Of a DNA stretch of 64,000 bases, positions 16,455 to 62,967 are shown piece after piece; position 1 is the stretch's first letter; each line of letters starts with the position of its first letter. A program made the translations under genes and the position numbers. This DNA is from a bacterium (GTDB lineage: Archaea; Nanobdellota; Nanobdellia; Pacearchaeales; GW2011-AR1). The notes beneath the pieces were generated by a model. The model was not told the DNA's origin, did no database searches, and saw only the letters and a program-made list of their open reading frames with translations. Location: contig DAITPU010000002.1 of assembly GCA_036833455.1 (NCBI GenBank), forward strand, positions 16,812 through 80,811, read 5' to 3'.

Positions 16455-17825
16455 TTAGCTACAAAACTGTCCAACTAATCCTGTATCTGGATAACCTACA
16501 AAATATTTCATTACTAATAAAGAATCTATTGAATTTATTGCCCCATCTCCATTAGAATCTATGCAACATATATTTGAAGGTCTTGGAGTTAAATCTACAA
16601 AAACTTTTGCAATAAGATGTGCATCTCCTGAATTTATTGATCCGTCTCCATTAGCATCCCCTATTAGTGATCCTGAAAAACATTCTACACATGGTTGAGG
16701 GGAAAATTTTTGAATTACATATTTAAAAGGAGGATAATTGTTTCCGGGTAATTCATAAACTGTAGGAAAGTAAACTTTTCCTAGACTATCTACAACAATT
16801 GATCTAAGGCTTCCATTTTCAAATTGCCACGTTGAAACTCCGTATGTATCCCAAGAATCAACTAAATTTCCGTTAAAATCATATTTGGATATTAATCTTT
16901 TTGAGGGGGAAGTGGCATATATGTTTCCATATCCGTCTAAAGCGATCCCATAAGAAGAATTTCCAAAACTAAAAATATGACTTAAATTTGAAGAAAATTT
17001 TTTGATTTGCTTCTCGTATTCAGATACATATACGTTTCCATAAATATCTGTTGCGATATCTAAAGGAGAATTTTCAAATTGATAATTTTCTGTGCCGAAA
17101 CCTCCTCCTTGACCAATTAAACTCATGTTTTGGTTGAATTTGAAAATCTTTCCTTCTGAGTAATCTAAAATATAAATATTTCCAAAATAATCTAAAGCTA
17201 TTTTATCTAAAGTTCCTAAAATGGAGATGTTCCAATAATTAATTAAACTTCCATTCGAATTAAATTTTTCTAATTTATTTAAAGAGGGGGTTACTGCAAA
17301 AATATTTCCTTGGTTATCTATCTCTAAATCTTTAGCTGAGCTAGAAAAAGACAAAAGATAATTTCCATTTGAATCAAATTTTTTTATCACCCCATTTGAA
17401 GCATCTGTTGCATATATATTTCCAAAATTATCTGTATCTATGCCTGAAGGAATCTCTCCAAATTGAGAATAACTTGTTCCGTACCCTCCCCATTGCGTTT
17501 CATAAATATAGGTTAAACAAGCGCCTTGAGGACCAATTGGTGTGCTTATCATTGTTGGAGAAAAATCTTCTTCTAAAATTTTTTCTTCTTCAGTTAAAAA
17601 AATTGTATCTTCTACTTCAGAAATTTTTTTCTTTTGATTGAAGTCTGCCTTATTAAAATTTTCTTCAAAAAAACATTTCCAAAAACTATTGCATTTTAAG
17701 TTTGAATTTAATTCTGATAATTGAGAGGAGTTTACTAAAGGAGATATTCCTAAAAGAATTATTAAAATTAAAAAATATGTCCTTAAAATAATTTTAAATT
17801 TTTTATTTTCCATATCTTCAACCAA
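16455..17825 (-). CDS. Secreted NHL-repeat beta-propeller protein with C-terminal dockerin-like module
   Basis: Signal peptide; repeated GNIYV(A/S)D..N.I.KF NHL-type blades; C-terminal GDANGDGSINSGDAHLIAKVF...DSNGDGAINSIDSLLVMKYF resembles duplicated Ca-binding dockerin type I repeats. Confidence 0.6.
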   Translation of the reverse strand: MVEDMENKKFKIILRTYFLILIILLGISPLVNSSQLSELNSNLKCNSFWKCFFEENFNKADFNQKKKISEVEDTIFLTEEEKILEEDFSPTMISTPIGPQGACLTYIYETQWGGYGTSYSQFGEIPSGIDTDNFGNIYATDASNGVIKKFDSNGNYLLSFSSSAKDLEIDNQGNIFAVTPSLNKLEKFNSNGSLINYWNISILGTLDKIALDYFGNIYILDYSEGKIFKFNQNMSLIGQGGGFGTENYQFENSPLDIATDIYGNVYVSEYEKQIKKFSSNLSHIFSFGNSSYGIALDGYGNIYATSPSKRLISKYDFNGNLVDSWDTYGVSTWQFENGSLRSIVVDSLGKVYFPTVYELPGNNYPPFKYVIQKFSPQPCVECFSGSLIGDANGDGSINSGDAHLIAKVFVDLTPRPSNICCIDSNGDGAINSIDSLLVMKYFVGYPDTGLVGQFCS

Positions 17826-17865
17826 TTAAAAGAATATTTAAACATTTATGTTTAATTTTATTTAA

Positions 17866-18162
17866 TTATTTTATACTCTTTCCCTTAAAAAGATATTTTA
17901 ATTTATCCCAAAATCCTAAAGGCTCTATATGAACTACCTGATTTTTTTCATCTAAAAGTTCATATTTTATAACTGGCTTTTCTTTCATAGAAGAGGCACT
18001 TTTTGCTAATTGATGATGTGCTTCTTTAAGAGCTTGCTCTACAATAACCCGAGAATAACTTTGCTTGAATAATGCAAACTTTAAAGATTCTTCAGAATAA
18101 CCCTTAGAAAGATTTCTTTTGAAATATTCTATCAATTGATCCTTATTATCTGGCCTTCTCAT
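17866..18162 (-). CDS. Hypothetical protein
   Basis: 98-aa ORF, no family recognised. Confidence 0.4.
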   Translation of the reverse strand: MRRPDNKDQLIEYFKRNLSKGYSEESLKFALFKQSYSRVIVEQALKEAHHQLAKSASSMKEKPVIKYELLDEKNQVVHIEPLGFWDKLKYLFKGKSIK

Positions 18163-18215
18163 TGATTTTAGAAGACTGTCGAGTTTAAAAAATTTATTCC
18201 ATACAAGAATATAGA

Positions 18216-20138
18216 TTAAATTCTTTCAAAGAACTCAATTACCCTTAAATCTGGGCTTAAAACGTTGACTTTATCTTCAAAAAATCTCAATCCCCTATAA
18301 AGTTTTTGCAATAACTCTCTTTTGGCCTTATCTCTATAAAACATCCAATAGTAATTTGGTTTGGTATTCATTAAAATTTTCCAAAAAGGGTCTTCTACAT
18401 TTGGATTTGGATACTTTGTAAAAACAATAGAATTGCACTCTTCACCAGGAAAATCTATTCCTCTTGAATCCTTAGTTGAAAATAAAAGATCTAAATTTCC
18501 TTCCTTAAAATCTTTAACTCTTCTTCCCGTTTTATCTTTGGATTGCATCTCAATTAGATCTTCTCTGGAAATAAGATTTTTTATAGAAAAATTTTCTTTT
18601 TCTCTATTCGTGGGAAGATCTTTAAAGGAATTTACATGAACTAAAATTGGTTTTGTTGCTTTTTCTATTGATTTATCTAAGGCCAAAAGATAATCTTCTC
18701 TAGTATAATTTTTACTAAAATTTGAATATTTGCAATCAAATTCCAAACCAGTTCTAACTACATTTATTTTACCTTGTTCTTTTGTTTCGGCTTCAACTAT
18801 TTTGAAATTTGTTATTCCAAAAATATTTTTTAACACTTCTTCTGAATGAAGGGTTCCGGACATTAAGACAAGTTTTTTATTTTTTTTTGTGAACTCTTCT
18901 AATTTTTTTGCAAGATTAGTCGTTACTAAATGAATAAAAAGAGAATTGTCTTTTTTTGAAAAAGTTAAATAAGTTTCTTCTAAAAAATTAGAAAAAATCA
19001 TTGCCGTTTCAAAAACTTCTAAAAGATAACTCTCTTCATCTATTTCTTCTAAAAAGTTTTTAGTTAAAAAAAGTTTTAGAATATCATAAATCCCTGTTTT
19101 CCTTAATTCAATTATCTGATTTGATTCAATAGCTCTCTGAATTCTTTTATCTTTTTTTAAATGTTTAATGAGTTCAAATATTTCTTCTATTGCTTCTCCT
19201 TTTCCTTCTCCAGATCCCAATGCCACTAACAAAGAATTTTGTAATCTTTCTAAATTAATTGTTCTTTCATTAGAAAGACTATCTAAAAATTCATCACATT
19301 CATCAATTATTTCAACTTCCGTTAAGGGTTTTCTGTTTAATATAGTCTCTAATTTGTACTTGAGTGAATTAAAAACGATTACATCTGATTCTATATAAGA
19401 ATTGAATTGCTCATAATAAGGACACCCTGGTTTTCTTTTGTATTGAATAAAATTTACATTATCCAGCCCTTTGTATGTTCTTTTATCTCCTTCTAAGTTT
19501 TTTAAATCATACTTATCTGGGAGAACTGGACTCCAATAAGGACAAACACTTGCAATAGAAATTCTTTTTACATCAGAAATTTTTTGAAAATTATTTGAAT
19601 TTATTTTTGGATTCTTTTTTAAATATTCTCTTAATTTATTCCAGTTTTTTTCTCGTATTTCTACCTTACAAGGAAGTTCATTATTGTCTGCGGATGGATC
19701 TTTTTCTTGAATTTCTTTGCCTTCTTTTTTTCCTTCAAAAATATCATGAAGTTTTAGATTAATTTCCTTTTTTATCTTGGGTATTAACTTTTCATTATCT
19801 TCTAAAAATTTACATTTATGGTTTTTTCTTCCAGTGATTATGCTTATCTTTAAGTTCTCTCCATTTTCTTTCTTTAAAAATTTTTTATCTTCATAATCTC
19901 TTTTGTATTGCGATTGTAAATTTTTTCCTGGAACAACAATTGAGGTTTTCCCTAATTTATTTGCAATATTTAGGGCTATTGCAGATTTTCCGGTTCCACA
20001 CATTCCGTGAATAAAGATTATTTTTTCATCTTTTTTTATTAAATCCAAAACTTCTTTAACTATGTCCTTTTGAGTCTTCCCGTTAGAAAAACATAAAGGT
20101 TCCAAAAATTTTCCATTTTCATAAAGATTCCATGTCAT
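18216..20138 (-). CDS. Rad3/XPD-family (DinG-like) FeS DNA helicase
   Basis: Walker A GTGKS, DExD-like IIDECDEF, SGTL motif, C-terminal RGIDFPGE; four Cys (incl. two CPY) between Walker A and B consistent with XPD 4Fe-4S domain. Confidence 0.55.
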   Translation of the reverse strand: MTWNLYENGKFLEPLCFSNGKTQKDIVKEVLDLIKKDEKIIFIHGMCGTGKSAIALNIANKLGKTSIVVPGKNLQSQYKRDYEDKKFLKKENGENLKISIITGRKNHKCKFLEDNEKLIPKIKKEINLKLHDIFEGKKEGKEIQEKDPSADNNELPCKVEIREKNWNKLREYLKKNPKINSNNFQKISDVKRISIASVCPYWSPVLPDKYDLKNLEGDKRTYKGLDNVNFIQYKRKPGCPYYEQFNSYIESDVIVFNSLKYKLETILNRKPLTEVEIIDECDEFLDSLSNERTINLERLQNSLLVALGSGEGKGEAIEEIFELIKHLKKDKRIQRAIESNQIIELRKTGIYDILKLFLTKNFLEEIDEESYLLEVFETAMIFSNFLEETYLTFSKKDNSLFIHLVTTNLAKKLEEFTKKNKKLVLMSGTLHSEEVLKNIFGITNFKIVEAETKEQGKINVVRTGLEFDCKYSNFSKNYTREDYLLALDKSIEKATKPILVHVNSFKDLPTNREKENFSIKNLISREDLIEMQSKDKTGRRVKDFKEGNLDLLFSTKDSRGIDFPGEECNSIVFTKYPNPNVEDPFWKILMNTKPNYYWMFYRDKAKRELLQKLYRGLRFFEDKVNVLSPDLRVIEFFERI

Positions 20139-20172
20139 GAAAAAGAATAAATAAACTAAGAGTTATAAAGTT

Positions 20173-23160
20173 TTATTTTGAACAAGGTGGAACGAACTTT
20201 TGAATAGAACGACTAGAAGTGTCTCCTACATAAACATTTCCAGAGGAATCAACAAAAAGACTTTGAGGGTTGCTTAATTGACCATCTCCTGTCCCTGAAG
20301 ATCCAATCTTATCTAAATAGTTTCCATTTGAATTAAATATTTGTACTCTCTTATTATTTAGATCCAGTACATAAACTTTCCCTTCTGAATCTAAAGCTAC
20401 TTTCTGCGGATTCTTTAATTGACCGTTTCCTACTCCATAAAATCCAAATTTCCTTAAGAAATTTCCATTTGAATCAAAAACTTGTATCCTATGGTTATTT
20501 GAATCAACTACATATAAATTTCCTATCGAGTCTGTAGCAAGACCTCTTGGATTATTTAATTGGCCGTCTCTAGATCCTCTTACTCCGAAACTTTTTATTA
20601 AATTTCCATTGGAGTCATATTTGTTTATCAAATTTTTATAATAATCTGAAGCATAAATATTTCCCGAAGCATCTATAGCTATTCCGCTTGGGGTTCCAAG
20701 TGAGAATTGTCCTTTTGCTCCTATAGTTGATATATAATTTCCATTTGAATCAAACTTTACAATGTTGTTATTTCCTGTATCTATAACATAAAGATTTCCT
20801 AATGAATCTGATGAAAAATCTATTGCAGCTCCTTTAAACTTTCCATTTTCGGTTCCATAAGATCCAAAACTTAAAAGATGATTTTTCTCTTTATCAAACT
20901 TTAAAATTTTGCTGTTACTTAGCATATAAAAATTTCCTAAAGAATCTATAAAAATTCCCATTGGAAAAAACTGTTCATTTAAGTTTGGAGAAGAAGTCCA
21001 CTTTGCTAAAAACTCGTAACCATTGTTTCCGCAATAATTAGGATCTCCTAAACTAAATCCAGTTATAACAGGAGGATTTATTATTGAAGGTTCTTGCTGA
21101 AAAAAAGAAAATTCTTGTATTCTTGTATTTCCTCTTTCTGCAACATAAACTCTATTTTCTGGACCTATTTCAACAGCAGACGGCATGTTGAATTTTCCAT
21201 CTTCTATTCCGTAAGAACCAAAACTTTTTAAGAAATTTCCATTTGAATCAAAAACTTGTATTCTGTTGTTGCTTGAATCTGCAATGTAAACTCTTCCATA
21301 TGAATCTAAAGAAATTCCCAAAGGAGAACTGAATTCTCCTTCTTCATAACCTTTAACTCCCCATTTAAGTAAATAATTTCCATTTGAATCAAATTTTTGA
21401 ACTCTATTATTGCTTGAATCCACTACATATAAATTATTATTTGCATCTATTGCTAATGTCCTGGCATAAATAAATTGTCCATCTCCAGAGCCTTTAGTTC
21501 CAAATTTAGAAATATATTTTCCATCTGGACCAAACTTTTGAACACGAAAGTCATTATCTAAAATATAAATATTCCCAAAATTATCTATTTCAATTCCCGA
21601 AGGATTTTTCAAATATCCTTCTCCAGAGCCTTTAGTTCCAATATTTCCTAAATAAACTCCCTCTGAATTGAACTTTACTATACGAGAATTATACTTATCT
21701 ACAACGTAAATATTATTTGAAAAATCTATTGCTAAATCAGATGCAAACTTAAATTGCCCATCTCCTGATCCAGAAGAACCAAAACTTATTAAAAAATTTC
21801 CATTTGAATCAAATTTCAAAACTTCGTCTTCCATACTTAAACTGTATATGTTTCCTGAAGAATCTATAACCATTGCTGAAGGCCCAAACATTTGAGATCC
21901 AGTTAATTTTTTATAAGGCCATTTTTTGACAAAAAAATATTCCAAACTAGAATTAGTCATATTAGTAGAATTTGTTACATTTGTAAAATTTGAATAATTT
22001 TGTTGTAACATTGAGCACGGAATTAAAAATTTCTTGATTAATTCATTTCCAGAATCTCCTACATAAACATTTCCTTGATTGTCTACTGCTACAGAATAAG
22101 GGTGGTTTGAAAACTGCTCATCATCTTCAGGGGATATTTTTTTAAGGTAGTTTCCATTTGAATCAAAAACTTGTATTCTGTTGTTGCTTGAATCTGCAAT
22201 GTAAACTCTTCCAGATGAATCTAAAGAAATTCCCCAAGGGTTATTGAACTGACCTTCTTCTGAACCAAGAGTTCCCCATTTAGTTAAATAATTTCCATTT
22301 GAATCAAATTTTTGAATTCTATGATTCCCAGTATCAACAACATAATAATTTCCTAAAGAATCTATTGCAATTCCTCTTGGAAAAGAAAAATATCCAGATA
22401 AAGATCCCCCTGTAAGAGCTTTAGAAGAAGATAAATAATTCCCTTCTAAATCAAATATTTGAATTCTATGATTATTTGTATCGGCAATATAAATTTTGTT
22501 TGAAGAATCTATTGCTATTCCTAAAGGAGATTTGAATTGTCCTTCTTTTACTCCTAACAAACCAAAATTTGAAACATACTCTCCTTTTGAATTATACTTA
22601 ACAATTCTATTGTTTCCTGTATCAACTACATAATAATTTCCTAATGAATCTAAAGCAAAATCCCTTGGGAATTTTAATTGCCCTTCTCCAGTTCCATAAG
22701 ACCCTATTGTTGTAAGATGTGCTCCTTCCGAATCAAATTTTATAATTTCATTGTTACTTAAAACATAGATATTCCCTAATGCATCTGTTTTTATTGAGAT
22801 AGGGAAGAAATTTCCATTTGAATTAGAAAGTTTGTCATATCCCCACTTTAATTTAAATTCATAATCTTCAGAAGAACTACATTCCGGATTTTGAATATAA
22901 CCTTCAGAATATACTATTTCATTTTTTTCTTCTATATTTCCTTCTTCAACTCTCTTTTGTTCTTCTATCCTCTTTTGTTCTTCTAATCGGGCTTGCTCTT
23001 TTTCAGCAACTTGTTTCATTAATAGACATTCAAAAAAACCTTTGCATTCTTTTTGTTCAGAAACTGCATAACCCGTTAATGAAGCTCCAATTATAAGAGA
23101 ACCAACTAAAAATAGAAACAGCACACTTAATGAAATGTAAAGATATGTTTTTCGTTTCAT
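20173..23160 (-). CDS. Giant (995 aa) membrane-anchored NHL-repeat surface protein
   Basis: N-terminal TM anchor, coiled-coil K/E/Q segment, then ~18 NHL-type repeats (GN.YV.D..N.RIQ.FDSNGN) forming probably three propellers. Confidence 0.65.
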   Translation of the reverse strand: MKRKTYLYISLSVLFLFLVGSLIIGASLTGYAVSEQKECKGFFECLLMKQVAEKEQARLEEQKRIEEQKRVEEGNIEEKNEIVYSEGYIQNPECSSSEDYEFKLKWGYDKLSNSNGNFFPISIKTDALGNIYVLSNNEIIKFDSEGAHLTTIGSYGTGEGQLKFPRDFALDSLGNYYVVDTGNNRIVKYNSKGEYVSNFGLLGVKEGQFKSPLGIAIDSSNKIYIADTNNHRIQIFDLEGNYLSSSKALTGGSLSGYFSFPRGIAIDSLGNYYVVDTGNHRIQKFDSNGNYLTKWGTLGSEEGQFNNPWGISLDSSGRVYIADSSNNRIQVFDSNGNYLKKISPEDDEQFSNHPYSVAVDNQGNVYVGDSGNELIKKFLIPCSMLQQNYSNFTNVTNSTNMTNSSLEYFFVKKWPYKKLTGSQMFGPSAMVIDSSGNIYSLSMEDEVLKFDSNGNFLISFGSSGSGDGQFKFASDLAIDFSNNIYVVDKYNSRIVKFNSEGVYLGNIGTKGSGEGYLKNPSGIEIDNFGNIYILDNDFRVQKFGPDGKYISKFGTKGSGDGQFIYARTLAIDANNNLYVVDSSNNRVQKFDSNGNYLLKWGVKGYEEGEFSSPLGISLDSYGRVYIADSSNNRIQVFDSNGNFLKSFGSYGIEDGKFNMPSAVEIGPENRVYVAERGNTRIQEFSFFQQEPSIINPPVITGFSLGDPNYCGNNGYEFLAKWTSSPNLNEQFFPMGIFIDSLGNFYMLSNSKILKFDKEKNHLLSFGSYGTENGKFKGAAIDFSSDSLGNLYVIDTGNNNIVKFDSNGNYISTIGAKGQFSLGTPSGIAIDASGNIYASDYYKNLINKYDSNGNLIKSFGVRGSRDGQLNNPRGLATDSIGNLYVVDSNNHRIQVFDSNGNFLRKFGFYGVGNGQLKNPQKVALDSEGKVYVLDLNNKRVQIFNSNGNYLDKIGSSGTGDGQLSNPQSLFVDSSGNVYVGDTSSRSIQKFVPPCSK

Positions 23161-23346
23161 ATAACCACCTAATTTTATTTAGAGTGTATCTTATTTAAAT
23201 GTTTTTAATTTATTTTGTTATAAAAAAATTTAAAAAATATTCAAGAAAATTAGATGAATTATCTTCCTAAAAATTTCTATTAAAATTAAGTTCGTGTTCC
23301 AACTAAAGAAGTTGGGATTGTCTACGCGGTTAAATTAAAAATAAAA

Positions 23347-23634
23347 TTATCCGAATAAAGCAGACAATCCTTCAGCTGCAGCAGCTTTCTTTTCTTCTTT
23401 CTTTGGTGCTTCTTCTTTCTTTTCAACTGCCGGCGCATTTGCTGGAGCAGAGGAAATTAAAGCCGCATTTTCTAATTCAGCTGCGATATTAACACCATTT
23501 AAGCTAACAATTAAGGATTTAACCTTAGACTCGTCAACTTTTTCGCCTGTAGCTGCAACTACGCTTTTTATTGCGTTTTCAGTTACTTCTTTTCCAAGTT
23601 TGTGCAACAATAAAGCTGCATATATGTATTCCAT
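23347..23634 (-). CDS. rpl12: Ribosomal stalk protein P1 (aL12)
   Basis: MEYIYAALLLH... start and acidic/Ala-rich tail ending GLSALFG. Confidence 0.85.
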   Translation of the reverse strand: MEYIYAALLLHKLGKEVTENAIKSVVAATGEKVDESKVKSLIVSLNGVNIAAELENAALISSAPANAPAVEKKEEAPKKEEKKAAAAEGLSALFG

Positions 23635-23661
23635 CTTCTTTTCCTTTATTTAATTAGTAGA

Positions 23662-24549
23662 TTAACCAAAAAGACTTGCAAGTCCTGCAGTTGAATCTAC
23701 TTTGGGCTCCTCCTTTTTATTTTCCAGAGGAGTTTTTTCTGAAGAATCTTCTAAAATTTCGTCTTCTTCTCCAGTTATTACTTTTATTAATCTTTTCTCT
23801 TGTCTTCCTGCTTTTTGAATCATTAATTTAATTGTTTCCGTACAGAAATAACTCAAATTTACTGCAAAAGATAATGCTTTCAAATGAGATTCTTTCAATT
23901 CCTTTAATGTTCCTTCTTTATCAATAATAATTTCAGAATAAAACATTCCTGATTCTTTATCTATAGCACAAAGCGGTTTGAATCCAATTGAAAAAGGCAT
24001 TATATTTAATTTACTTAAAATGTCTGCTGCTGCTTGAGTTATTGAGGCTCCTTTTTTTGCAACCACCTTAGATTGCTTTATATGGATCTTTCCTCCTTGG
24101 ATCTGTATTTGAATTCCTACTGCCCCTAATTCTGAAATTGCGGGTCCTGGAACTAAATCTGTCGGACCTTCAGGAATTTCTATATCTTCTGGAGCTATCT
24201 GTCCGGGTTTCGCTTTTGAAGGACTCTTGTTTTTTAATAAATCTCCTGCCAAATTAAAAGAATCTTCATTAGAAAATAATATTGCAAAAGCGCTTTCTTC
24301 TTTAATTCTTTTTTTCATTTCTTCTGAATTGCTTAACTTAACTTTATCCATTGCCATAAGGATTAAATTTTTTTTAGGAACTTTAATTGTAGATTTATTC
24401 CTCATTTTCTTCTTTATTTGTTCGTATTGAGTTCCAGGAATTCCGCTTATTGACGCCAATAGAATTGTTTTATTATTACTTAATAAGTCGATTAATTCTT
24501 TCAATGCTTTTGTTTTTTTCACAGGTATTTGTTCTACAACTTTTTTCAT
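23662..24549 (-). CDS. rpl10: Ribosomal stalk protein P0 (uL10)
   Basis: 295 aa with C-terminal GLASLFG stalk tail; between L1 and P1. Confidence 0.85.
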   Translation of the reverse strand: MKKVVEQIPVKKTKALKELIDLLSNNKTILLASISGIPGTQYEQIKKKMRNKSTIKVPKKNLILMAMDKVKLSNSEEMKKRIKEESAFAILFSNEDSFNLAGDLLKNKSPSKAKPGQIAPEDIEIPEGPTDLVPGPAISELGAVGIQIQIQGGKIHIKQSKVVAKKGASITQAAADILSKLNIMPFSIGFKPLCAIDKESGMFYSEIIIDKEGTLKELKESHLKALSFAVNLSYFCTETIKLMIQKAGRQEKRLIKVITGEEDEILEDSSEKTPLENKKEEPKVDSTAGLASLFG

Positions 24550-24550
24550 T

Positions 24551-25174
24551 TTACTTGATAGTTAATTTAATTGGTTTAGTCATTGTGAATTTTAATTCTA
24601 AATTTTTTACATTTTCTTTTCCTCTAGGGAGGTTTTTTATTATTTCGTGATAAATTGAAATAATGTTCTCAATTAAATCTTCATCTTTCATAGACTGTTT
24701 TCCAACAGGCAATTTTATTGAAGATTCTTTTACCCTTATTTTTACAGAAGTATTTATCTTTTGTTTAAGTTCATTTATTGTCTTTTCATCTGCATTCAAT
24801 ATAATTCCTAGTTGAGGAGAAGGCATTTTTCCAGTTGGACCTAAAACTCTTCCGAAAGTTGTCGCAACTTGAGGCATTATTTTTGCTTGAGAAATAAAAA
24901 AATCATATTTTCTAACCAAAGATTTTAATTTTTTCTTGTCTGAATATTTTTTAAAATCTTGAAAAGTTATTGTGTCAATTAATTCTGAATTTGATTCTAA
25001 AAAAGCGGCGACTTTTTTATCTTTAGTTTTATGAGGAACTGTGGCAAAAAGATTTATGGGATTTTTTTTAACAGAATATTTTTGAAGATTTACAATTAGG
25101 TCTAAAGTTTGGTCAAATTTTCTTTCTTTGTTTTTTCTTAGTTCTTCTAATGCTTTTTTTAATTCAGCTTCCAT
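24551..25174 (-). CDS. rpl1: Ribosomal protein uL1
   Basis: L1 sequence; start trimmed to MEAELKKALEEL (ORF extends 18 codons further upstream). Confidence 0.8.
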   Translation of the reverse strand: MEAELKKALEELRKNKERKFDQTLDLIVNLQKYSVKKNPINLFATVPHKTKDKKVAAFLESNSELIDTITFQDFKKYSDKKKLKSLVRKYDFFISQAKIMPQVATTFGRVLGPTGKMPSPQLGIILNADEKTINELKQKINTSVKIRVKESSIKLPVGKQSMKDEDLIENIISIYHEIIKNLPRGKENVKNLELKFTMTKPIKLTIK

Positions 25175-25289
25175 TGAATCTCCTCCTACAGTATGCTTGG
25201 AATCAGTCAAGAACTGTCGACTTACCAAGATGTAGTTAATTGGATATTCTTTTTATAAGAAAAAGGTTTATAAAAGTTTTGATTGCCTT

Positions 25290-25919
25290 TTAATTAAGAG
25301 ATGAAGGAGGTTCCTTAAGTCTATACCAGAATACCCATCCTTTATGGTAATAGGCATCTTTAGAAGGTTTATATTTAATTGCGCAATATCTAAAATCAAT
25401 TAAAGGATAATTAGAAGAATCTTCCTCGTAAATTTCCCCCGGAATAAGCTCTCCTTCTGTGCTCTCTCTTATAAGAGAGATTTCTTCTCCAGATTCAATT
25501 CTTTCTTTTATTTTGTTTTCTTCTAAATACCTTAAGATTTCCCCTTTAGCATATTCTTCATATTCTGTTAATTCTCCCTCATATTCTTTTATTAATTCAT
25601 TTTCTTTTACAAAACTTTTTATTTTTTCTGCACATTCTCCGTAAGTTTTATCAAATTCTTCTTCAGACATAAAACCTGTCCAATCCTTTTCCTCGTATCT
25701 TTTATTTTCAAAATTTAAATCTTCATTTTGTTCTGTGTTTTCTTCTTGAATTTTTTCTTGAGTTTGTTTCATGAATATACATTCAAACAAATTTGAACAA
25801 GATTTTTCCCCATTGCTTGAAATTACATTTCCTGTGATAACTGAACCAGCAATAAAAAACCCAAGAAAAAAAGCAAACACTGCAACTATTGCAATATAAA
25901 TATAAATTTGTTTTTTCAT
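25290..25919 (-). CDS. Membrane-anchored acidic hypothetical protein sharing N-terminal Cys module with NHL proteins
   Basis: N-terminal TM then CSNLFECIFMKQ, compare CKGFFECLLMKQ in 20173..23160 and CNSFWKCFFEEN in 16455..17825. Confidence 0.45.
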   Translation of the reverse strand: MKKQIYIYIAIVAVFAFFLGFFIAGSVITGNVISSNGEKSCSNLFECIFMKQTQEKIQEENTEQNEDLNFENKRYEEKDWTGFMSEEEFDKTYGECAEKIKSFVKENELIKEYEGELTEYEEYAKGEILRYLEENKIKERIESGEEISLIRESTEGELIPGEIYEEDSSNYPLIDFRYCAIKYKPSKDAYYHKGWVFWYRLKEPPSSLN

Positions 25920-47700: not shown

Positions 47701-49227
47701 TTATTCTTTTTTTAGACCCTTTATCATGTCTGAGAATGCAGGTCTAGTTATAAAAACTCCTACAGAAATTCCTATCATTGTTGTTATTGCAAATCCTTTC
47801 AATAATCCTGCTCCTGCCCATATAAGAGGAAGTAGAGAAGCAAAAGTTGTAAAATAGGCTCCCATAATAATTACAAATCCTCTCTTTAATCTTTGCTTTA
47901 AACTTAGAATTACTTTTTGATTCGACTCATCTAAAAGGATGATTAAATCATCAACTCCTGTTCCAAGAGTTGCTAAAATTCCTGCGATTCCCGGAAGATC
48001 TATGTTCCACCTTATCATCGCTGCAACCCCCAAAATTATTATAACTTCTGAAATTGTAGTTGCTACTAAAGCCAAAGAAGATTTGAAACTTTTATATCTA
48101 AAAAACAAAGTTAATGCTACAATTAAAATTATTCCTAATGCAGTAAAAATAATCGTTTTTATAATTTCTTTTCCTAGAGTGGGGGAAATTGTATCTAATT
48201 TGACAATTTCTAATTTATAAGGTAAACTTCCCGTCATAAGAATAGTTTGAAGTTTTTTCATATTTTCTTTTGCGGAATTTAGAGCATCATCATAAGTCTG
48301 TCCTGTTCCAGATCCGGAAATAGAAATTTGGGTTGTTAATTGACCCTTTAATCCTTCACTAATTAACAAACTATCCACTAAATTTCCATCTAAGATTAGA
48401 TCTAACTTTTCAGAGAGATAATTTCCTTGAGAAGTCATATTTACTCCAAGATTAGAAGTTATATCTGCGTGTTTTTTTGCGGCTTCTGGACTAAGAGTTA
48501 TTGTAAAACTAAAAGTACAATAATAAGTCCCGTCTGAACTTTGATCACATGATTCTATCCTTGCATTTTGTGCATCTCTTCCTACTGAAGCTATATCTCT
48601 TTCTCCCCCTGTGAAGACAGTCTTATTTCCAATTCTTGCTTCAAATTCTCCTTGCTCTGAGATTAAATTTCTCAAATCCTTAGGAGTTGCACCCGCTATT
48701 TCGATTAACATAAAATTATTTCCGGATAAATCTGAAACAGAAGTTACAAAAAGATCAGTTAATCCAAAAGCATTTAGTCTGTTTGCAGTTATTGTCGCTA
48801 AATCTGAAGCTTCCTCAGAAGTTAGGGATTTATTTTCTGCTTTAATTAAAGCCCTTGAACCTCCCGCAAGATCTAATCCTAACTCTATATTTGTTTGAGG
48901 AATTTTAGAAATAGATATTGGGGGAAATTCTTTTTCAAAAACAATTATCTCTTTTTTATTTTGAGTTAAAAAAGTTATTCTCTCTTCATTTAATTTGGGA
49001 TATTCTGAAACTATTTGAGAATAATCTTCTAAATTTTTTATCGAATTTCCATTTACAGATATTAAAATATCTCCTGCCCTAAGTCCTTGTTCAAAAACGC
49101 TGCTTGATTTTTCAACATCTGTTATTAAAACTCCGGATTGAATTGCTTTTGGGGGAATTCCAAAAATAGCTACTAGTGAAAAGAAAACTAAAATTAATAA
49201 AATCCAAATTTTAAAAGTCAATTTCAT
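47701..49227 (-). CDS. secD: Protein-export membrane protein SecD
   Basis: Large periplasmic-type domain then 6-TM SecD/SecF core (ILATLGTGVDDLIIL). Confidence 0.75.
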   Translation of the reverse strand: MKLTFKIWILLILVFFSLVAIFGIPPKAIQSGVLITDVEKSSSVFEQGLRAGDILISVNGNSIKNLEDYSQIVSEYPKLNEERITFLTQNKKEIIVFEKEFPPISISKIPQTNIELGLDLAGGSRALIKAENKSLTSEEASDLATITANRLNAFGLTDLFVTSVSDLSGNNFMLIEIAGATPKDLRNLISEQGEFEARIGNKTVFTGGERDIASVGRDAQNARIESCDQSSDGTYYCTFSFTITLSPEAAKKHADITSNLGVNMTSQGNYLSEKLDLILDGNLVDSLLISEGLKGQLTTQISISGSGTGQTYDDALNSAKENMKKLQTILMTGSLPYKLEIVKLDTISPTLGKEIIKTIIFTALGIILIVALTLFFRYKSFKSSLALVATTISEVIIILGVAAMIRWNIDLPGIAGILATLGTGVDDLIILLDESNQKVILSLKQRLKRGFVIIMGAYFTTFASLLPLIWAGAGLLKGFAITTMIGISVGVFITRPAFSDMIKGLKKE

Positions 49228-55901: not shown

Positions 55902-56075
55902 TTTACTCCTTTCTTCTTTTTTGGAAAAGAGATTTGATCCCAATTCCTATGATTAGAAAAAAAGACACGATTCCTCCTACTGCTAGAAAGAATCCTTCCC
56001 ATTTTACTACCTTGATCACCCAATAAAGGAAAATCAAAATGGCAATGAGAATTAGGAAAAAGGTTAGTGTGCTCA
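55902..56075 (-). CDS. Small (57 aa) membrane protein, not in ORF track
   Basis: rc translation MSTLTFFLILIAILIFLYWVIKVVKWEGFFLAVGGIVSFFLIIGIGIKSLFQKRRKE. Confidence 0.25.
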
Positions 56076-56090
56076 TTGTTTTTGTTTTTT

Positions 56091-56477
56091 TTAGTTAAAG
56101 GTTTTCTTTCCCCAGAATTGTCCGAGAACTATTCCAAGAATAAGTGCTAAAAAGGAAACTAGGATGCTTCTGAAAATGATTCCTTCTTTTAGTCCCAATA
56201 ATATGAAAACTACCATACAGATTGCGGCCATGCTTATCCAAATATACCAAAAAAAGGCTATCAGGAATCCTTCCGTTCCAAGAGGATAATCTCTTTTTAG
56301 GATGAAGGCAATTATTCCTGCAAGAGATATTCCTGTAAGAATGTATGGCCAGACATTAGGATCCTTTGAGAGATCTTCTGTTCCCCCAAAAACATTTAAG
56401 GCAAAAAGTATGCCAAAAATAAATAATAAAGCAAGTTCTTTTTTCATAGTTGTGATTTTTGTTTTTTTGTTTGACAT
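56091..56477 (-). CDS. Small membrane protein, first gene downstream of repeat element copy A
   Basis: 128 aa, 3-4 TM; higher-GC codon usage than left part of window. Confidence 0.45.
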   Translation of the reverse strand: MSNKKTKITTMKKELALLFIFGILFALNVFGGTEDLSKDPNVWPYILTGISLAGIIAFILKRDYPLGTEGFLIAFFWYIWISMAAICMVVFILLGLKEGIIFRSILVSFLALILGIVLGQFWGKKTFN

Positions 56478-56487
56478 TAAAAAATAA

Positions 56488-56548
56488 ATAGCACTCGCAT
56501 CATAGCAGTGCTCTTACCAACTTCGCTTGTCGTTCTCAATTAAGAGTT
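56488..56548. repeat. Structured intergenic repeat element, copy A (~60 nt)
   Basis: ATAGCACTCGCATCATAGCAGTGCTCTTACCAACTTCGCTTGTCGTTCTCAATTAAGAGTT; near-identical to copies at 59405, 61482, 62924. Confidence 0.75.
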
Positions 56549-56558
56549 TGGAAATTCT

Positions 56559-58040
56559 TTATTCTATCTGGATAAACATTGTTTGTATTGATCCAGATGT
56601 AGCCGTTATAGGAGTTCCAGCCGGAACAAAGATGACTGCCACATAGCTTCCCGGAAGGGCAACATAATTCCCTCCGTACAGATTTGCTGCAGCATACATC
56701 TCTTGGGCCTTTGTAGTCAGGGCCGGAACACCGCCTAAGGGCAGTCCATTCCATTGGGGTACATCAAAAAGCCATAGGGCTTGTTGCAAATCCCACCAGG
56801 AGTACGACCCAAAATAATCCAGGTGATTATAAAGCCAATTTATTTTCTTCCACCTTTCTTCCCCCCGAGCGAACAGCGGCAACTTGTCTTGATACAGCGA
56901 TGAGTACACATCCATGTTATACGCCACTCCTATGTAAATTAAAGTGGAGTGATCGGCGCAATTGGAAGGATATACTCCATTTTGCAAAATATATCCCGTC
57001 GGTATATTGCTCAATGTTGCATCCACATACCCCCCCATTGTGGATGGTTGAGCAGTAATGGTGTATGTGCACGTGGAGGGCAAATTCATATACTCCGGGA
57101 TTATTACGTCCGGCGGAGTGGCAGGATCATAGCATCCTCCTAAAACAAAATCAACTACTCCGTCGTTTCCTTGAGGAATGTTGGATACATCGTTAAAGGA
57201 AAATTCTTTGAATAGGACATATCCGAACGTTGTTCCTGTCTTCACATAGATGAAGAGTTTAAAGATAAATTCCTCATTTTCATCTAGATAATCTCCATAA
57301 TTCACTGCTAGCTTTTCTCCCTGGACGGAATTCAGAAAAGTGTTCTGCAATACTCCGTTTCTCCACACCTCGACTTTAAATATCGCCGGTACATCGATAT
57401 ACGGTCCGGGGGAAAGACTCCAATTTGCTTGCTGAGAATATAAAGACCCCACGTATTCCGACTTATTTCTGATACAGAAATTTCCGAAAAACCACTGCTC
57501 GCGGATAACCACCTGGTTTAACTGGAAGTACACAAACCCGAAATTTGCGTGGGTTGCAGGATCATAACAAGCAACATCCATTTTGAGTTCATTTTTTTTG
57601 TCTGTGGATACTTGAAAAGTTTTTTCCAAAGGTGTCGTGACGTAGCCGGCAAACGCGCTTCCAATATGAGGTGTAGCAAATATTAAAACATCATCACCCA
57701 AATTATTTGGTGTGTTGTTGTTGTTATACACAAGGAATTCACTTATGAGGTGTGTTCCGGCAGGTAATTTTATTGAGGATGTGTATTTGTTCCCCCCTAC
57801 ATTAAAAATCGGAATCTCCTGAAAATTCCCCTGGTTTATTCTCAACCGGACATAATCCGCTCTCAAACCAGAGCAGATGACAGTATCGATCTTTGTGATT
57901 GGGCCAGATTTCTGAGAAAGGTTATTAGTTCTGTTCTCCACTTCAATTGAAACTTCAAAAAGTTCTGAAAGTGGAGTATCTTCCTTTTTGCATCCAAAAA
58001 GCAAAAGGAATGGAACAAGCAAAAAAAGTTTTGTTTTCAT
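56559..58040 (-). CDS. Lipoprotein with bacterial-type lipobox (LLLFGC), 493 aa, unknown function
   Basis: MKTKLFLLVPFLLLFGCKKED signal/lipobox; GC-richer codon usage; conserved start-proximal motif AAAAAACTTTTAACAC-ATG. Confidence 0.55.
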   Translation of the reverse strand: MKTKLFLLVPFLLLFGCKKEDTPLSELFEVSIEVENRTNNLSQKSGPITKIDTVICSGLRADYVRLRINQGNFQEIPIFNVGGNKYTSSIKLPAGTHLISEFLVYNNNNTPNNLGDDVLIFATPHIGSAFAGYVTTPLEKTFQVSTDKKNELKMDVACYDPATHANFGFVYFQLNQVVIREQWFFGNFCIRNKSEYVGSLYSQQANWSLSPGPYIDVPAIFKVEVWRNGVLQNTFLNSVQGEKLAVNYGDYLDENEEFIFKLFIYVKTGTTFGYVLFKEFSFNDVSNIPQGNDGVVDFVLGGCYDPATPPDVIIPEYMNLPSTCTYTITAQPSTMGGYVDATLSNIPTGYILQNGVYPSNCADHSTLIYIGVAYNMDVYSSLYQDKLPLFARGEERWKKINWLYNHLDYFGSYSWWDLQQALWLFDVPQWNGLPLGGVPALTTKAQEMYAAANLYGGNYVALPGSYVAVIFVPAGTPITATSGSIQTMFIQIE

Positions 58041-58182
58041 GTGTTAAAAGTTTTTTGTGAAAAGGATTAAAACTCTTCTGCAACATAGACTTAACTTACT
58101 AAATTCCGTCACAGTGGTTCCCTATTTTTTTATAGCGATTGGATTCAACGCTCACAATTTCTTCTCAATTAAGAGTAAAGAG

Positions 58183-58212
58183 GTTGGCGACGAGATTCGA
58201 ACTCGTACCTTT
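58183..58212 (-). other. tRNA 3'-half-like fragment (T-arm + acceptor 3' strand), no 5' half found
   Basis: rc GGUACGAG-UUCGAAU-CUCGU-CGCCAACC; upstream sequence does not fold into D/anticodon arms. Confidence 0.35.
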
Positions 58213-58304
58213 TCTTCTCTCCGTGCGTGGGATCTCTGCCGTAAAAAGAAAAACGCTAGGGAGGAAGAGAGAAGAAAACTTCTACTTAAAATACGCCAAC
58301 CATT

Positions 58305-58634
58305 TCAATCACATAAATTCACCCTGTTCTTTTCATCCTCTTCTTTCATTCTGGATATCCAGCCCGAAAGAGGAGAAAGTTCTGAATCTAAAACCATCTT
58401 ATGATCCGCACGATAAAGAATAATTCTGCCACATTTGCAGAATTTTATCCTGTCGTCGTACCAATCTGTTCTGGAATTTGCCTTTCTTCCAGACCGAACT
58501 AGGACTTTTAGTCCGTCCGGGTCGGAAACTTCATAGTATGTTTTTGATCCTTGGTTCTCAAAAACAAACCTTATTTTCCGAATTGAATACTTCATTGGAT
58601 CTCCAATCCTAACACACTCTTTTAAAATATTCAT
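58305..58634 (-). CDS. Hypothetical protein (island)
   Basis: 109-aa ORF, overlaps next gene start/stop (operon-like). Confidence 0.4.
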   Translation of the reverse strand: MNILKECVRIGDPMKYSIRKIRFVFENQGSKTYYEVSDPDGLKVLVRSGRKANSRTDWYDDRIKFCKCGRIILYRADHKMVLDSELSPLSGWISRMKEEDEKNRVNLCD

Positions 58635-58891
58635 TCTGCCCTCCTTTCCAGTTTGAAGTTAAAGATGTGTTGGCCTTCTTTCCGGCGTGAAGCCTTTTTG
58701 TCAAACTCCAGGGAGAAAGAGTCGGCCGGAAATATCTTGGAGAGTTCTTTCACAAGAGAGCTCTTTGAGCTCACTCTCTTAATGAAATTTCCTCTTTCTT
58801 CAAAAGGAACTATGCTCAAAGAGGACGACTCGGGGTGGAGCTGAAAAGATCCCTCTCTTTTTAGGAGGACGAATTCATTTTTCTTTCCCAT
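58631..58891 (-). CDS. Hypothetical protein (island)
   Basis: 86-aa ORF in tight tandem array. Confidence 0.4.
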   Translation of the reverse strand: MGKKNEFVLLKREGSFQLHPESSSLSIVPFEERGNFIKRVSSKSSLVKELSKIFPADSFSLEFDKKASRRKEGQHIFNFKLERRAE

Positions 58892-58902
58892 GATTTTAAT
58901 TT

Positions 58903-59214
58903 TTAGTTGATTGTAATAGCTGATTTGTTTAAAGGGGTTAAGAAATAAATTACTTTTCCGTCTTCCGACGAAAAGGAAGAAACTCTTCGCAATTTTTCCT
59001 CTAAAAGAAAAATTATTTCTTCTATTGCCTCGTTTGGATTTCCGTTCCTTTTAAGAGTGGTTTTTCCAAAGATAGAAGTTAAACTTTTCTTTATTTCCTC
59101 TTTAGAGAGAAAAATTCCTTGAGAAAGGATTGATATGAGATAGGCCATTTCTTCTTGATAAGGAGAAGATGGATGCCTTTCCTGTAAAAAAATTCTAAAA
59201 TTTTGCTTTTCCAT
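58903..59214 (-). CDS. Hypothetical protein (island)
   Basis: 103-aa ORF. Confidence 0.4.
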   Translation of the reverse strand: MEKQNFRIFLQERHPSSPYQEEMAYLISILSQGIFLSKEEIKKSLTSIFGKTTLKRNGNPNEAIEEIIFLLEEKLRRVSSFSSEDGKVIYFLTPLNKSAITIN

Positions 59215-59226
59215 AATTAATTTCGA

Positions 59227-59367
59227 TTAATCTTCCAAACAGCATTTTTTTCGGGCCCAGGCATTCCTTTTTTGAAGAGAAAGTATTGCTCTCCTATATT
59301 GAGCTGCCTCTTTTTTTTCGAGACATTTTTGGCGAAGGGCCTCAATTTTTTTTTGAATTTTTTTCAT
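59227..59367 (-). CDS. Small basic protein (46 aa) directly downstream of repeat copy B
   Basis: MKKIQKKIEALRQKCLEKKEAAQYRRAILSLQKRNAWARKKCCLED; start preceded by AAAAAACTTTTAACAC. Confidence 0.35.
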   Translation of the reverse strand: MKKIQKKIEALRQKCLEKKEAAQYRRAILSLQKRNAWARKKCCLED

Positions 59368-59404
59368 GTGTTAAAAGTTTTTTTGTTAAACATAAAATTA
59401 AAAA

Positions 59405-59464
59405 ATAGCACTCGCTCACAGCAGTGCTCTTACCAACTTCGCTTGTCGTTCTCAATTAAGAGTT
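59405..59464. repeat. Structured intergenic repeat element, copy B
   Basis: ATAGCACTCGCTCACAGCAGTGCTCTTACCAACTTCGCTTGTCGTTCTCAATTAAGAGTT; overlaps stop of 59452..59703. Confidence 0.75.
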
Positions 59465-59703
59465 GGCTGCATCTTAGATTGAATTATTATAAGATTCCTC
59501 TTGAACCTCTTGCGATTAAAGGTCCAGAGAAAACTTTCAAACAAGAAGTGCATTGCTGCAAATCCATAATGGGCGATTCCGGTTAGGAAAATTACGAGAA
59601 AGAAAGTTAAAAAATTAGCTCTCTTCTCTTTCAAACCTTTCCAGGTTCTTCTCCAGAAAATCTTTTCTTTCTGAAGGACAATTTTGAGCAGGCTTGTCTT
59701 CAT
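59452..59703 (-). CDS. Small membrane protein (island)
   Basis: 83 aa, one TM. Confidence 0.4.
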   Translation of the reverse strand: MKTSLLKIVLQKEKIFWRRTWKGLKEKRANFLTFFLVIFLTGIAHYGFAAMHFLFESFLWTFNRKRFKRNLIIIQSKMQPTLN

Positions 59704-60290
59704 GATTTTTTCCTCCTCATGTTCTGGACAATAGCAAAATGAACTGAATCTTTTGGAAGATGCAGATTATATTTCTTATTGATCTTTGGCATTCCTAATG
59801 TTGAACACCAAATGTTTGGAGCTTTCACTGCCTCTTCCTTTGTTATTTCATAATACGGAAGGGGTGAATGAATCTCGGTCACAATAGTTTTTCTGTCTAC
59901 CTCTGAAGAGGAGTCCAGCTTCAAGGAATTACTATCTCTTTCAAAGAAATGGATATTTATCTCTTCATAAGAGAAAGAAAGAGTGCCTCCTTTTGTTCGA
60001 ATTAGAATATTGCTATCCTCTCTCAATAGAGCAAAGTGAGGTGTGACACGGACCATACTATCATTTACCTGAACTGAATCCCCCTCGACAGGCGATAAAA
60101 TTCTTGTTCTCATAATAACTGTCTCTCGCTCTGCGGATTTTGCTCCAACTGCATTTAAGACTGCCATCGGAACGAATGCTATGCCTGCAGCAAGAAGAAT
60201 GATAGTAAACTTCTTCTGGTATGCCCTTTTTCCGAACACCATCGCAATCACGATGATTGCAATTAAGGTGGAAACTAGATATGTTGCCAT
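59700..60290 (-). CDS. Membrane-anchored hypothetical protein (island)
   Basis: 196 aa, two N-terminal TMs. Confidence 0.45.
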   Translation of the reverse strand: MATYLVSTLIAIIVIAMVFGKRAYQKKFTIILLAAGIAFVPMAVLNAVGAKSAERETVIMRTRILSPVEGDSVQVNDSMVRVTPHFALLREDSNILIRTKGGTLSFSYEEINIHFFERDSNSLKLDSSSEVDRKTIVTEIHSPLPYYEITKEEAVKAPNIWCSTLGMPKINKKYNLHLPKDSVHFAIVQNMRRKKS

Positions 60291-60302
60291 TTTTCTTCCT
60301 CC

Positions 60303-61442: not shown

Positions 61443-61481
61443 GATTGAAAAAGTTTTTTTGTTGATACTAAGTTAATAAAA

Positions 61482-61541
61482 ATAGCACTCGCTCACAGCA
61501 GTGCTCTTACCAACTTCGCTTGTCGTTCTCAATTAAGAGTT
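61482..61541. repeat. Structured intergenic repeat element, copy C
   Basis: ATAGCACTCGCTCACAGCAGTGCTCTTACCAACTTCGCTTGTCGTTCTCAATTAAGAGTT, identical to copy B; overlaps stop of 61533..62006. Confidence 0.75.
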
Positions 61542-62006
61542 GGGGATTTTTTTCTTTCTTTTGAACTCAAAAAGAAGTCCAAGAGAAATTCCTAATATTG
61601 TGAAAAAAGGGATAATCCATTTCCACAACGCAAACGATGGATCAAAATCTGGAAGTTCGTGGAGGGCAGATGTATTTTGAAATGCCGGAATTAGGAATCC
61701 CGGAATAAATCCAAGGAAAAAAAAACTTCCGCTCCAAGAGAGATAGCCCCCTTCTACTTTTACTCTTTTGAAAAAGAGGATTAGAAAGAAGTGGAATATT
61801 ATTCCTATCCCACAACCAACTAAAAGGTAAGGTAGAAATCTAAAATTGGGAACTTCTTCCCAAGGGAAGAGAAGTTTCCAGTTTCCTAATTCTATTCCTG
61901 CTCTTCGAATTAAAAGGTTGAAGGCTAGTGCGCTCCAAAGGAGGCACATGATGGCGATTAAAGAACGAAACTTTGTTTCGTTCAAAAATAGAATCATCCT
62001 TTTCAT
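61533..62006 (-). CDS. Membrane protein (island)
   Basis: 157 aa, 4 TM. Confidence 0.45.
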   Translation of the reverse strand: MKRMILFLNETKFRSLIAIMCLLWSALAFNLLIRRAGIELGNWKLLFPWEEVPNFRFLPYLLVGCGIGIIFHFFLILFFKRVKVEGGYLSWSGSFFFLGFIPGFLIPAFQNTSALHELPDFDPSFALWKWIIPFFTILGISLGLLFEFKRKKKIPNS

Positions 62007-62443: not shown

Positions 62444-62465
62444 GTGTTAAAAGTTTTTTTGTTTG

Positions 62466-62882: not shown

Positions 62883-62923
62883 GTGTTAAAAGTTTTTTTT
62901 GTTTAACATAAAATTAAAATAAA

Positions 62924-62959
62924 TAACACTCGCTCACAGCAGTGCTCTTACCAACTTCT
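62924..62959. repeat. Structured intergenic repeat element, copy D (truncated)
   Basis: ATAACACTCGCTCACAGCAGTGCTCTTACCAACTTC then abuts stop of 62968..63747. Confidence 0.65.
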
Positions 62960-62967
62960 TAAAAAAA

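Follow-up and report, generated by a model that had tools for sequence, protein, structure and literature searches.

A conserved N-terminal module with a cysteine-aromatic core on different predicted surface proteins of one DPANN archaeal lineage

The YSIRK-G/S and KxYKxGKxW signal peptides of Gram-positive bacteria are common to sets of surface proteins and are widespread across genera. Here we describe an N-terminal module of about 60 residues on proteins encoded in and near a 64,000-nucleotide stretch of archaeal DNA (contig DAITPU010000002.1; this whole stretch is called the window below). Like those signal peptides, it is a recognisable leader on a subset of surface proteins with differing passengers, which implies a common export handling. 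In the Gram-positive leaders the motif lies inside the signal peptide and there is no cysteine pair, whereas in the module it comes after the hydrophobic segment and belongs to a single lineage. Type II single-pass membrane proteins consist of a cytoplasmic tail, a membrane helix and a stem region, and a type II signal anchor with its stem shares with the module a charged N-terminus, one helix, an extracytoplasmic passenger and a linker or stem with cysteines. Unlike such anchors, the whole module, including the n-region and the cysteine-aromatic motif, is conserved across different passengers, and it matches no curated family. The PGF-CTERM tags of archaeosortase (ArtA) substrates are made of a C-terminal motif, a hydrophobic helix and a basic tail, and an archaeosortase is required (reviewed in PMC6098224). 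These too are short conserved tags beside a membrane helix on diverse surface proteins, but they are C-terminal and the module is N-terminal. In archaeal lipoproteins, which are predicted to be common in DPANN archaea and whose lipidation depends on AliA/AliB, the lipobox [LVI][ASTVI][GAS]C comes directly after the hydrophobic region (PMC12462473). Lipobox (class II) signal peptides, which bacteria have as well as archaea, and the module both place a conserved cysteine soon after the N-terminal hydrophobic segment of surface proteins. The lipobox cysteine stands at the end of the hydrophobic region, however, while the first cysteine of the module stands 11–14 residues beyond it, after charged residues.

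An earlier note on the window had singled out a cysteine motif in three proteins: A, with NHL and dockerin domains; B, an NHL protein of 995 residues; and C, an acidic protein of 209 residues. The motif appears, from the alignments, to be the best-conserved core of a homologous N-terminal module of about 60 residues. This confirms the observation and takes it further: three proteins with a nine-residue motif become four with a 60-residue module, and A is a relative at the level of the motif. The module begins with a positively charged n-region, MK[KR][KQ][IT]YxY, followed by about 20 hydrophobic residues in which F17 and G20 are conserved; the uncharged stretch measures 23–24 residues and has a conserved Tyr at its inner end. 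Then come T-G-x-[AV]-[VI], 4–10 polar residues, the core C-x2-3-[FL]-F-[EG]-C-[LI]-[LF]-M-K-Q, and an E/K/Q-rich stretch of 30–50 residues that runs up to the first globular domain. In this last part, a putative stalk, E, K, Q and R abound, as in EEQKRIEEQKRVEE. Besides the aromatic pair, the two cysteines are the only invariant residues.

The first ca. 60 residues of B and C are 39–42% identical (BLASTP E=2e-15), and the score of their N-terminal alignment was reached by 0 of 2000 shuffles. A profile of these two N-termini was used in an exhaustive HMMER search of 1.84 billion representative proteins (E<=0.001), which returned seven proteins. Besides C itself, two of these are credible, P0003 with 84.7 bits and P0006 with 40.1 bits, the latter aligned over residues 1–58. 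The other four lack the N-terminal architecture and were rejected as spurious; P0004, P0005 and P0008 are internally repetitive, and for P0007, a protein of 5332 residues, no aligned stretch was reported. P0003, of 237 residues, is a full-length paralogue of C (42% identity) and its only full-length relative; its gene lies on the same contig as the window, about 50 kb away. P0006 is a protein of 1310 residues with a Peptidase_S8 (subtilase) domain, FG-GAP repeats and a C-terminal dockerin. It is found on contigs from the same sample set, including SRR6007447, with the same guanine-plus-cytosine (GC) content of 0.30, and very probably belongs to the same organism or population. The N-termini read MKRKTYLYISLSVLFLFLVGSLIIGASLTGYAVSEQKE-CKGFFECLL-MKQ in B, MKKQIYIYIAIVAVFAFFLGFFIAGSVITGNVISSNGEKS-CSNLFECIF-MKQ in C, MKKQIYTYVAIAAIAAFFLGLFISSSIITGNVVKNEKE-CSGFFGCLF-MKQ in P0003 and MKRQIYLYSSFFLILIFFGGIFLSGVSFTGRAVDED-CKGSFFECLA-KNAK in P0006. 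In a local profile built from these four sequences they score 109, 114, 117 and 92 bits, respectively, values that are self-inclusive. With P0003 and P0006 as carriers, the module is found on no fewer than three kinds of passenger that are unrelated to one another: B has NHL propellers, C and P0003 have a small acidic domain, and P0006 has a subtilase with FG-GAP repeats and dockerin. Pfam bears out the domain calls of the earlier note, with NHL in B (3.8e-107) and both SBBP/NHL-type propeller repeats and Dockerin_1 (6.5e-11) in A; C has no match in Pfam, NCBIfam or PDB.

It is possible in principle that such a motif carries no signal at all, and arises by chance in Cys-poor, Phe-rich proteins of an AT-biased genome, or as a by-product of recent duplication or gene conversion of the 5' ends. 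The genome has a GC content of 30% (that of the window is about 29%) and its proteins are rich in Phe (6.5%), which would suit chance, and A taken alone is not significant against a profile of the B/C type. The three open reading frames (ORFs) and their motifs are nevertheless present where the earlier note had placed them, and its spacing of 10–20 residues after the hydrophobic segment agrees with the 11–14 residues measured in A, B and C. The strict pattern C..[FLIWM][FWL][EKQDR]C[FLIVM][FLIVM], drawn up when the motif was already known, has an expectation of 0.026 matches in the 153,913 residues that ORFs of 100 residues or more contribute from the window and related loci (composition taken from 647 ORFs); three matches were observed. 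When slightly relaxed, the pattern matches five different proteins out of the 608 ORFs with 100 residues or more; all are of this organism, and the match always lies at residues 36–44. Six-frame translation of the window gives one further match, in a non-coding frame interrupted by stops. From the low expectation and the constant position, the motif is real and not a product of chance, and the B–C alignment speaks against chance as well.

Recent copying can be judged from the codons. At identical residues, the number of codons that module copies share is close to the one predicted from codon usage (observed and expected: 16 and 14.7, 16 and 14.0, 15 and 15.5, 25 and 21.4), the greatest excess being that of the pair C and P0006 (20 and 13.7). 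Synonymous sites between the copies are saturated. Codon agreement this near to expectation indicates that the copies are old and have not been homogenised by recent gene conversion, which is rejected as the source of the conservation, and that they are conserved at the protein level. This conservation differs clearly by region. Averaged over the pairs among B, C, P0003 and P0006, identity is highest in the n-region (69%) and in the block from the first Cys to MKQ (68%), intermediate in T-G plus linker (46%), and lower in the stalk (38%) and the hydrophobic helix (31%); between C and P0003 it is 67% in the first 60 alignment columns and 32% in the remainder. With saturated synonymous sites, the high identity of the n-region and the cysteine core means that selection maintains both. 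A similar picture comes from P0009, a strain variant of A from SRR26719225 that is 96% identical to it. Nine of its 19 substitutions fall within the first 67 residues, and its motif is CKGFWKCFF where A has CNSFWKCFF; both changes are non-synonymous and hit x positions only, so that C, F, W, K, C, F and F are kept though flanking residues changed. The reading without a functional signal is largely refuted, and we give it very little credence.

The position of A in this family is less direct. Against the B/C-type profile it scores 5.6 bits (E=1.8 among 1954 ORFs), which leaves it outside the module proper. Its N-terminus, MENKKFKIILRTYFLILIILLGISPLVNSSQLSELNSNLK-CNSFWKCFF-EEN, has a hydrophobic segment that resembles an ordinary cleavable signal peptide, with ...ISPLVNS|S at its end, and behind this the protein continues with the cysteine motif, an acidic linker, an NHL/SBBP propeller and a C-terminal dockerin. 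Three observations tie A to the others. Residues 8–153 of A align collinearly with residues 9–149 of B (BLASTP, 30% identity, E=1e-9), a stretch that covers hydrophobic segment, motif and acidic linker and reaches into the first propeller blade; the first three cysteines match in position (41/47/99 in A, 39/45/94 in B); and the dockerin of A is 72% identical to that of P0006. On this sequence evidence the best reading of A is an NHL paralogue of B that has diverged but retained the cysteine core and the stalk. The dockerin, as the part used in cohesin-dockerin attachment, is a second shuffled attachment module in this set of proteins. It is C-terminal, absent from B, C and P0003, and independent of the cysteine motif.

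The earlier note had taken the motif for a possible determinant across DPANN archaea. The organism does fit such a group. The nearest relatives of its L10 ribosomal protein, the gene for which lies between those of B and C, are 52–59% identical and come from metagenome-assembled genomes (MAGs) labelled Pacearchaeota, Woesearchaeota, Nanoarchaeota and Diapherotrites, so the guess of a DPANN-type archaeon was right; no close relative of the organism was found among 185,579 species representatives scanned. The window DNA forms part of a 161-kb metagenomic contig, ENA ERZ724101 NODE_25 (window position 1 corresponds to about position 56,809 of that record), and identical DNA is also found in Logan assemblies of SRR6007447 and other runs. 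The spread of the motif is another matter: the exhaustive search found only the paralogues of the organism itself. Neither orthologues of A, B or C, nor the motif in that context, nor an orthologue of the 123-residue neighbour of C were found in 24 loci of related Pace-, Woese- and Nanoarchaeota genomes, each centred on the L10 gene. A 98-residue protein encoded between a helicase gene and A (window 17866–18162, minus strand), without a match in Pfam or NCBIfam, is unlike A, B and C in being conserved (40–53% identity) in at least eight of these 24 loci. None of 96 other homologues of the A propeller has the motif. Two metagenome scans were also negative: back-translated module patterns gave 600 pattern matches in JGI/ENA data, 0 of them confirmed, and CKGF[FW..][EK]C[LF][LF] gave 41 DNA matches, all in a non-coding frame or an unrelated context and none after an N-terminal hydrophobic segment. 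The N-terminal 80 residues of the five proteins match no Pfam or NCBIfam family, neither the module profile nor C drew a meaningful match from PDB sequences, and full-length C, as the query of a word-indexed protein search, retrieved no protein but itself. The same kind of search with an alignment of three N-termini found nothing and missed even the protein of the query itself, so it is uninformative for such a short hydrophobic query. No relevant literature was found on the sample accessions, or on DPANN together with dockerin and NHL. Within the organism, no further carriers occur in about 17 kb of extra DNA past the two window ends (9 kb and 7.4 kb). Other exported proteins in the ca. 150 kb of genome read have ordinary signal peptides without the module (the 123-residue neighbour of C, Cys-rich proteins of 849, 725 and 606 residues, and proteins of 379 and 224 residues), which shows that it marks a subset of the surface proteins and not all of them; among the remaining exported proteins that were sampled, the module is missing from about half. 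Taken over these searches, the module is to all appearances a private feature of one lineage and not a general archaeal sorting signal. Judged by the earlier note's own yardstick of enrichment beyond the three proteins and presence in orthologues, the outcome is mixed: the motif extends to two more paralogues and is retained in P0009, but not to orthologues outside the lineage.

The N-termini have what a generic Sec signal peptide or signal anchor has: a positive n-region and an N-terminal hydrophobic helix, ahead of domains of extracytoplasmic type (NHL, dockerin, subtilase, FG-GAP). More specialised classes do not fit. A class III signal is a short charged leader that ends in [KR]-[GA] and is cut before the hydrophobic stretch. 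The module start has no G/A site before the helix, so a class III (type IV pilin-like) signal was rejected; true pilin-like N-termini of the same genome look different (for example MKRGQMELSFGMIFSII). A Tat signal was rejected as well, there being no RR in the n-regions MKRKTY, MKKQIY, MKRQIY and MENKKFK. The five proteins all lack a hydrophobic segment at the C-terminus (they end in ..GQFCS, ..VPPCSK, ..EPPSSLN, ..SWAHL and ..QLCSSI), which excludes them as archaeosortase/PGF-CTERM substrates. A lipobox also falls away: residues -3 to -1 are QKE, EKS, NLK, EKE and DED before the first Cys and FFE, LFE, FWK, FFG and FFE before the second, that is, charged or aromatic. What stands of the earlier note's post-signal module is a conserved element on different passengers under purifying selection.

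A new N-terminal sorting or anchoring signal would nevertheless be conceivable without a lipobox, if a dedicated enzyme processed the cysteine-aromatic motif or modified it covalently (by lipidation or a thioether link) after export. Such a signal would account for a module on unrelated passenger domains in which the cysteine core and the n-region are the best-conserved parts, for the short fixed distance of the motif (6–11 residues after T-G or VNS|S in all five proteins), and for how B, C and P0003 could stay on the cell, given that a cleaved leader would leave them without an anchor. Moreover, a gene for an archaeal signal peptidase I (TIGR02228) lies 88 bp from the P0006 gene and is divergent from it. 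This is the sole nearby candidate for the dedicated peptidase or transferase that the earlier note had thought might co-occur. Being the only signal peptidase I in the sampled DNA, it may be simply the housekeeping enzyme, and no candidate stands beside A, B, C or P0003, whose surroundings hold genes for ribosomal proteins, a helicase, a DedA/VTT protein, PCNA, primase and pilin-like proteins. Models for YSIRK, KxYKxGKxW, PGF-CTERM, PEF-CTERM and other NCBIfam/Pfam sorting signals gave sub-threshold noise only (first 80 residues of the five proteins, E<=10). The restriction to one lineage counts against such a signal too, and rules out, for now, an argument from phylogenetic profiles. A dedicated new sorting pathway is not supported, and the enzyme-processed signal seems to us improbable. 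Quite improbable is also the more specific scheme of Sec export and cleavage at T-G, after which a dedicated enzyme, with the signal peptidase I beside one substrate gene as a possible component, would modify or cross-link the cysteine element and so tether adhesins and a protease to the envelope or to a host.

On balance, and with modest confidence, we take the module to be a Sec leader or signal anchor, followed by a disulfide loop next to the membrane and by a stalk, that is specific to one Pace-/Woesearchaeota-like DPANN lineage and has been duplicated and recombined there onto different surface passengers. The copies are homologous, modular and confined to this lineage, with purifying selection on the n-region and the cysteine core. 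In the proposed mechanism, the n-region and the hydrophobic helix would drive Sec export with the N-terminus inside, and in B, C and P0003 the helix would probably stay as a signal anchor. In A, B, C and P0003 the sole 19-residue hydropathy window above 1.6 starts at residues 1–17, and P0006 has one extra window from residue 415, within its passenger region. Retention is favoured since B, C and P0003 have neither another hydrophobic segment nor a dockerin, and by F17, G20 and the Tyr at the inner end. Just outside, the two cysteines may close a small disulfide loop of 7–8 residues that presents two aromatic side chains at the outer membrane face, and the charged helix could serve as a stalk that keeps adhesin-like propellers, a protease or a small acidic domain off the cell. 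A would now have an ordinary cleavable signal peptide and be attached through its dockerin. The Cys totals of A, B and C are even, and this, with the cysteines that bracket propellers in B, suggests extracellular disulfides and, for the motif, a small loop of its own.

These cysteines of B (at 39, 45, 94, 382, 710 and 993) form pairs around the first (94/382) and the third (710/993) NHL propeller, with a ..PCS.. context after each, and the middle propeller has none. In A, P0006 and B the last Cys is 2–4 residues from the C-terminus (..FCS, ..LCSSI and ..PPCSK, respectively). This pattern suggests that propellers and dockerins are held by disulfide clasps.

The main rival to a retained anchor is an ordinary Sec signal peptide that is cleaved, leaving a mature N-terminus (cysteine loop, hydrophobic patch and charged helix) that works as a non-covalent interaction or oligomerisation peptide. 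One possibility is a ring of interchain disulfides at the foot of a stalk made of a coiled coil or a single helix; another is a docking peptide for a component of the envelope or host. [ILF]-T-G and T-G-x-A fit the (-3,-1) rule of signal peptidase, and the signal peptides of other exported proteins end in SG or SA. In A a separate canonical signal peptide precedes the same motif, the stalk abounds in E, K, Q and R, and T-G-N-V also follows the helix of an unrelated Cys-rich protein in two Nanoarchaeota MAGs, which suggests a generic habit of the c-region or cleavage site. The length of the uncharged stretch, F17, G20 and the inner Tyr look more like a retained membrane helix, however; with the leader gone, nothing visible would keep B, C and P0003 on the cell, and no interaction partner was identified. 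We regard this cleaved form as rather unlikely. The protein of the two Nanoarchaeota MAGs (H41 bins), of about 100 residues, is encoded at L013 7868–8305 (+) and L014 8232–8552 (+), ca. 1.5 kb upstream of the L1–L10 operon. It has a hydrophobic helix, FRTGNVAKE, six residues and then CFVGTCNTYY[KR]C, so that both T-G-N-V and C-x2-Y-Y-[KR]-C recall the module. Compared with the module profile it has no significant similarity (E ca. 1.2), and homology is unproven.

Several points weigh against the signal anchor with disulfide loop and stalk. The T-G elements, judged by eye, also suit a signal peptidase site, and the leader may be cleaved in all carriers. The strong conservation of the n-region is not explained by a simple anchor role. 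Cys totals are odd in P0003 and P0006, and the cysteine pair could have roles other than an i/i+6 or i/i+7 disulfide. The link of the A leader to the others is weak without the propeller (profile E=1.8; shuffle p 0.007–0.1), and sampling is limited to the portion of the genome that was read. An AlphaFold2 model of C, run with P0003, gives a weak hint of a loop that would separate the hydrophobic helix from a second one starting at residue 44, but the model is poor: its mean predicted confidence (pLDDT) of 43.6 is too low for a fold search. Topology, anchoring rather than cleavage, disulfide formation and the role of the stalk are all deduced from the primary sequence.

DPANN archaea presumably rely on host-cell contact, and the way in which they mount adhesins and enzymes on their surface is poorly known. 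Here, one lineage reuses two cassettes, one of leader, cysteine loop and stalk and the other a shared dockerin, with passengers that comprise NHL propellers, a subtilase and small acidic proteins. The leader cassette offers a simple marker for this class of the organism's surface proteins, and its two cysteines and two aromatic residues give a handle on anchoring. Its value is limited by its confinement to one uncultured lineage and by the fact that dedicated machinery was not found. The coordinates of the genes and their parts are collected in the table.

Table. Coordinates of the genes discussed, their N-terminal modules and motifs, and the signal peptidase gene next to P0006.
Feature	Record	Position	Strand	Details
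Gene A	window	16455..17813	-	452 aa from ATG at 17813 (gene callers' choice)
Gene A, longer form	window	16455..17825	-	456 aa from TTG at 17825
A canonical-looking Sec signal peptide, residues 1–29	window	17727..17813	-	MENKKFKIILRTYFLILIILLGISPLVNS; read from sequence; putative cleavage site VNS|S
A motif CNSFWKCFF, residues 41–49 of the 452-aa form	window	17667..17693	-	
Gene B	window	20173..23160	-	995 aa; N-terminal module, then three NHL beta-propellers
B module, residues 1–62	window	22975..23160	-	MKRKTYLY, hydrophobic helix, LTGYAV, CKGFFECLLMKQ, E/K/Q-rich stalk
B motif CKGFFECLL, residues 39–47	window	23020..23046	-	
Gene C	window	25290..25919	-	209 aa; N-terminal module and acidic domain without known family
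C module, residues 1–64	window	25728..25919	-	MKKQIYIY, hydrophobic helix, ITGNVI, CSNLFECIFMKQ, acidic stalk
C motif CSNLFECIF, residues 41–49	window	25773..25799	-	
Archaeal signal peptidase I gene	L028	2419–3069	-	TIGR02228, 82.9 bits (cut-off 51.85); no Pfam match
P0006 gene	L028	3158–7090	+	divergent from the signal peptidase I gene, 88 bp apart

Some further observations concern the surroundings of these genes. Some 40–50 kb upstream of the window, the same contig has a gene cluster (L031 2143–4454 and 9126–9890) for small proteins whose N-termini are of class III, the type IV pilin-like kind. This cluster adjoins the genes of large Cys-rich secreted proteins (849 residues with 26 Cys, and 725 residues with 42 Cys) and lies directly upstream of the P0003 gene; a protein with an S_layer_C domain is found at the edge of this locus.

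Within the window, a SecD-like protein of 508 residues (47701–49227, minus strand) has an N-terminal PDZ domain (PDZ_6, 3e-07) ahead of SecD_SecF_C, and its gene adjoins those of SecF and the AglB/STT3 oligosaccharyltransferase. At ca. 56000–63900 of the window (L036 7500–15000) there is an island with a GC content of 0.36–0.42, compared with 0.27–0.31 in its flanks, between two blocks of ribosomal and RNA-polymerase genes. Its ORFs include three without a Pfam match (493, 379 and 196 residues) and small membrane proteins, and two N-termini have bacterial-style lipoboxes (..LFSC|S and ..IASC|S). Beyond the island, just past the window, a LysM protein and a DUF87/HerA-like ATPase are encoded, followed some 5 kb later by a phage-type integrase and a fragment of a recombinase. 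The 379-residue protein of the island is also present on an unrelated Logan contig (SRR33870714), and the island looks like an integrated mobile element or foreign DNA.

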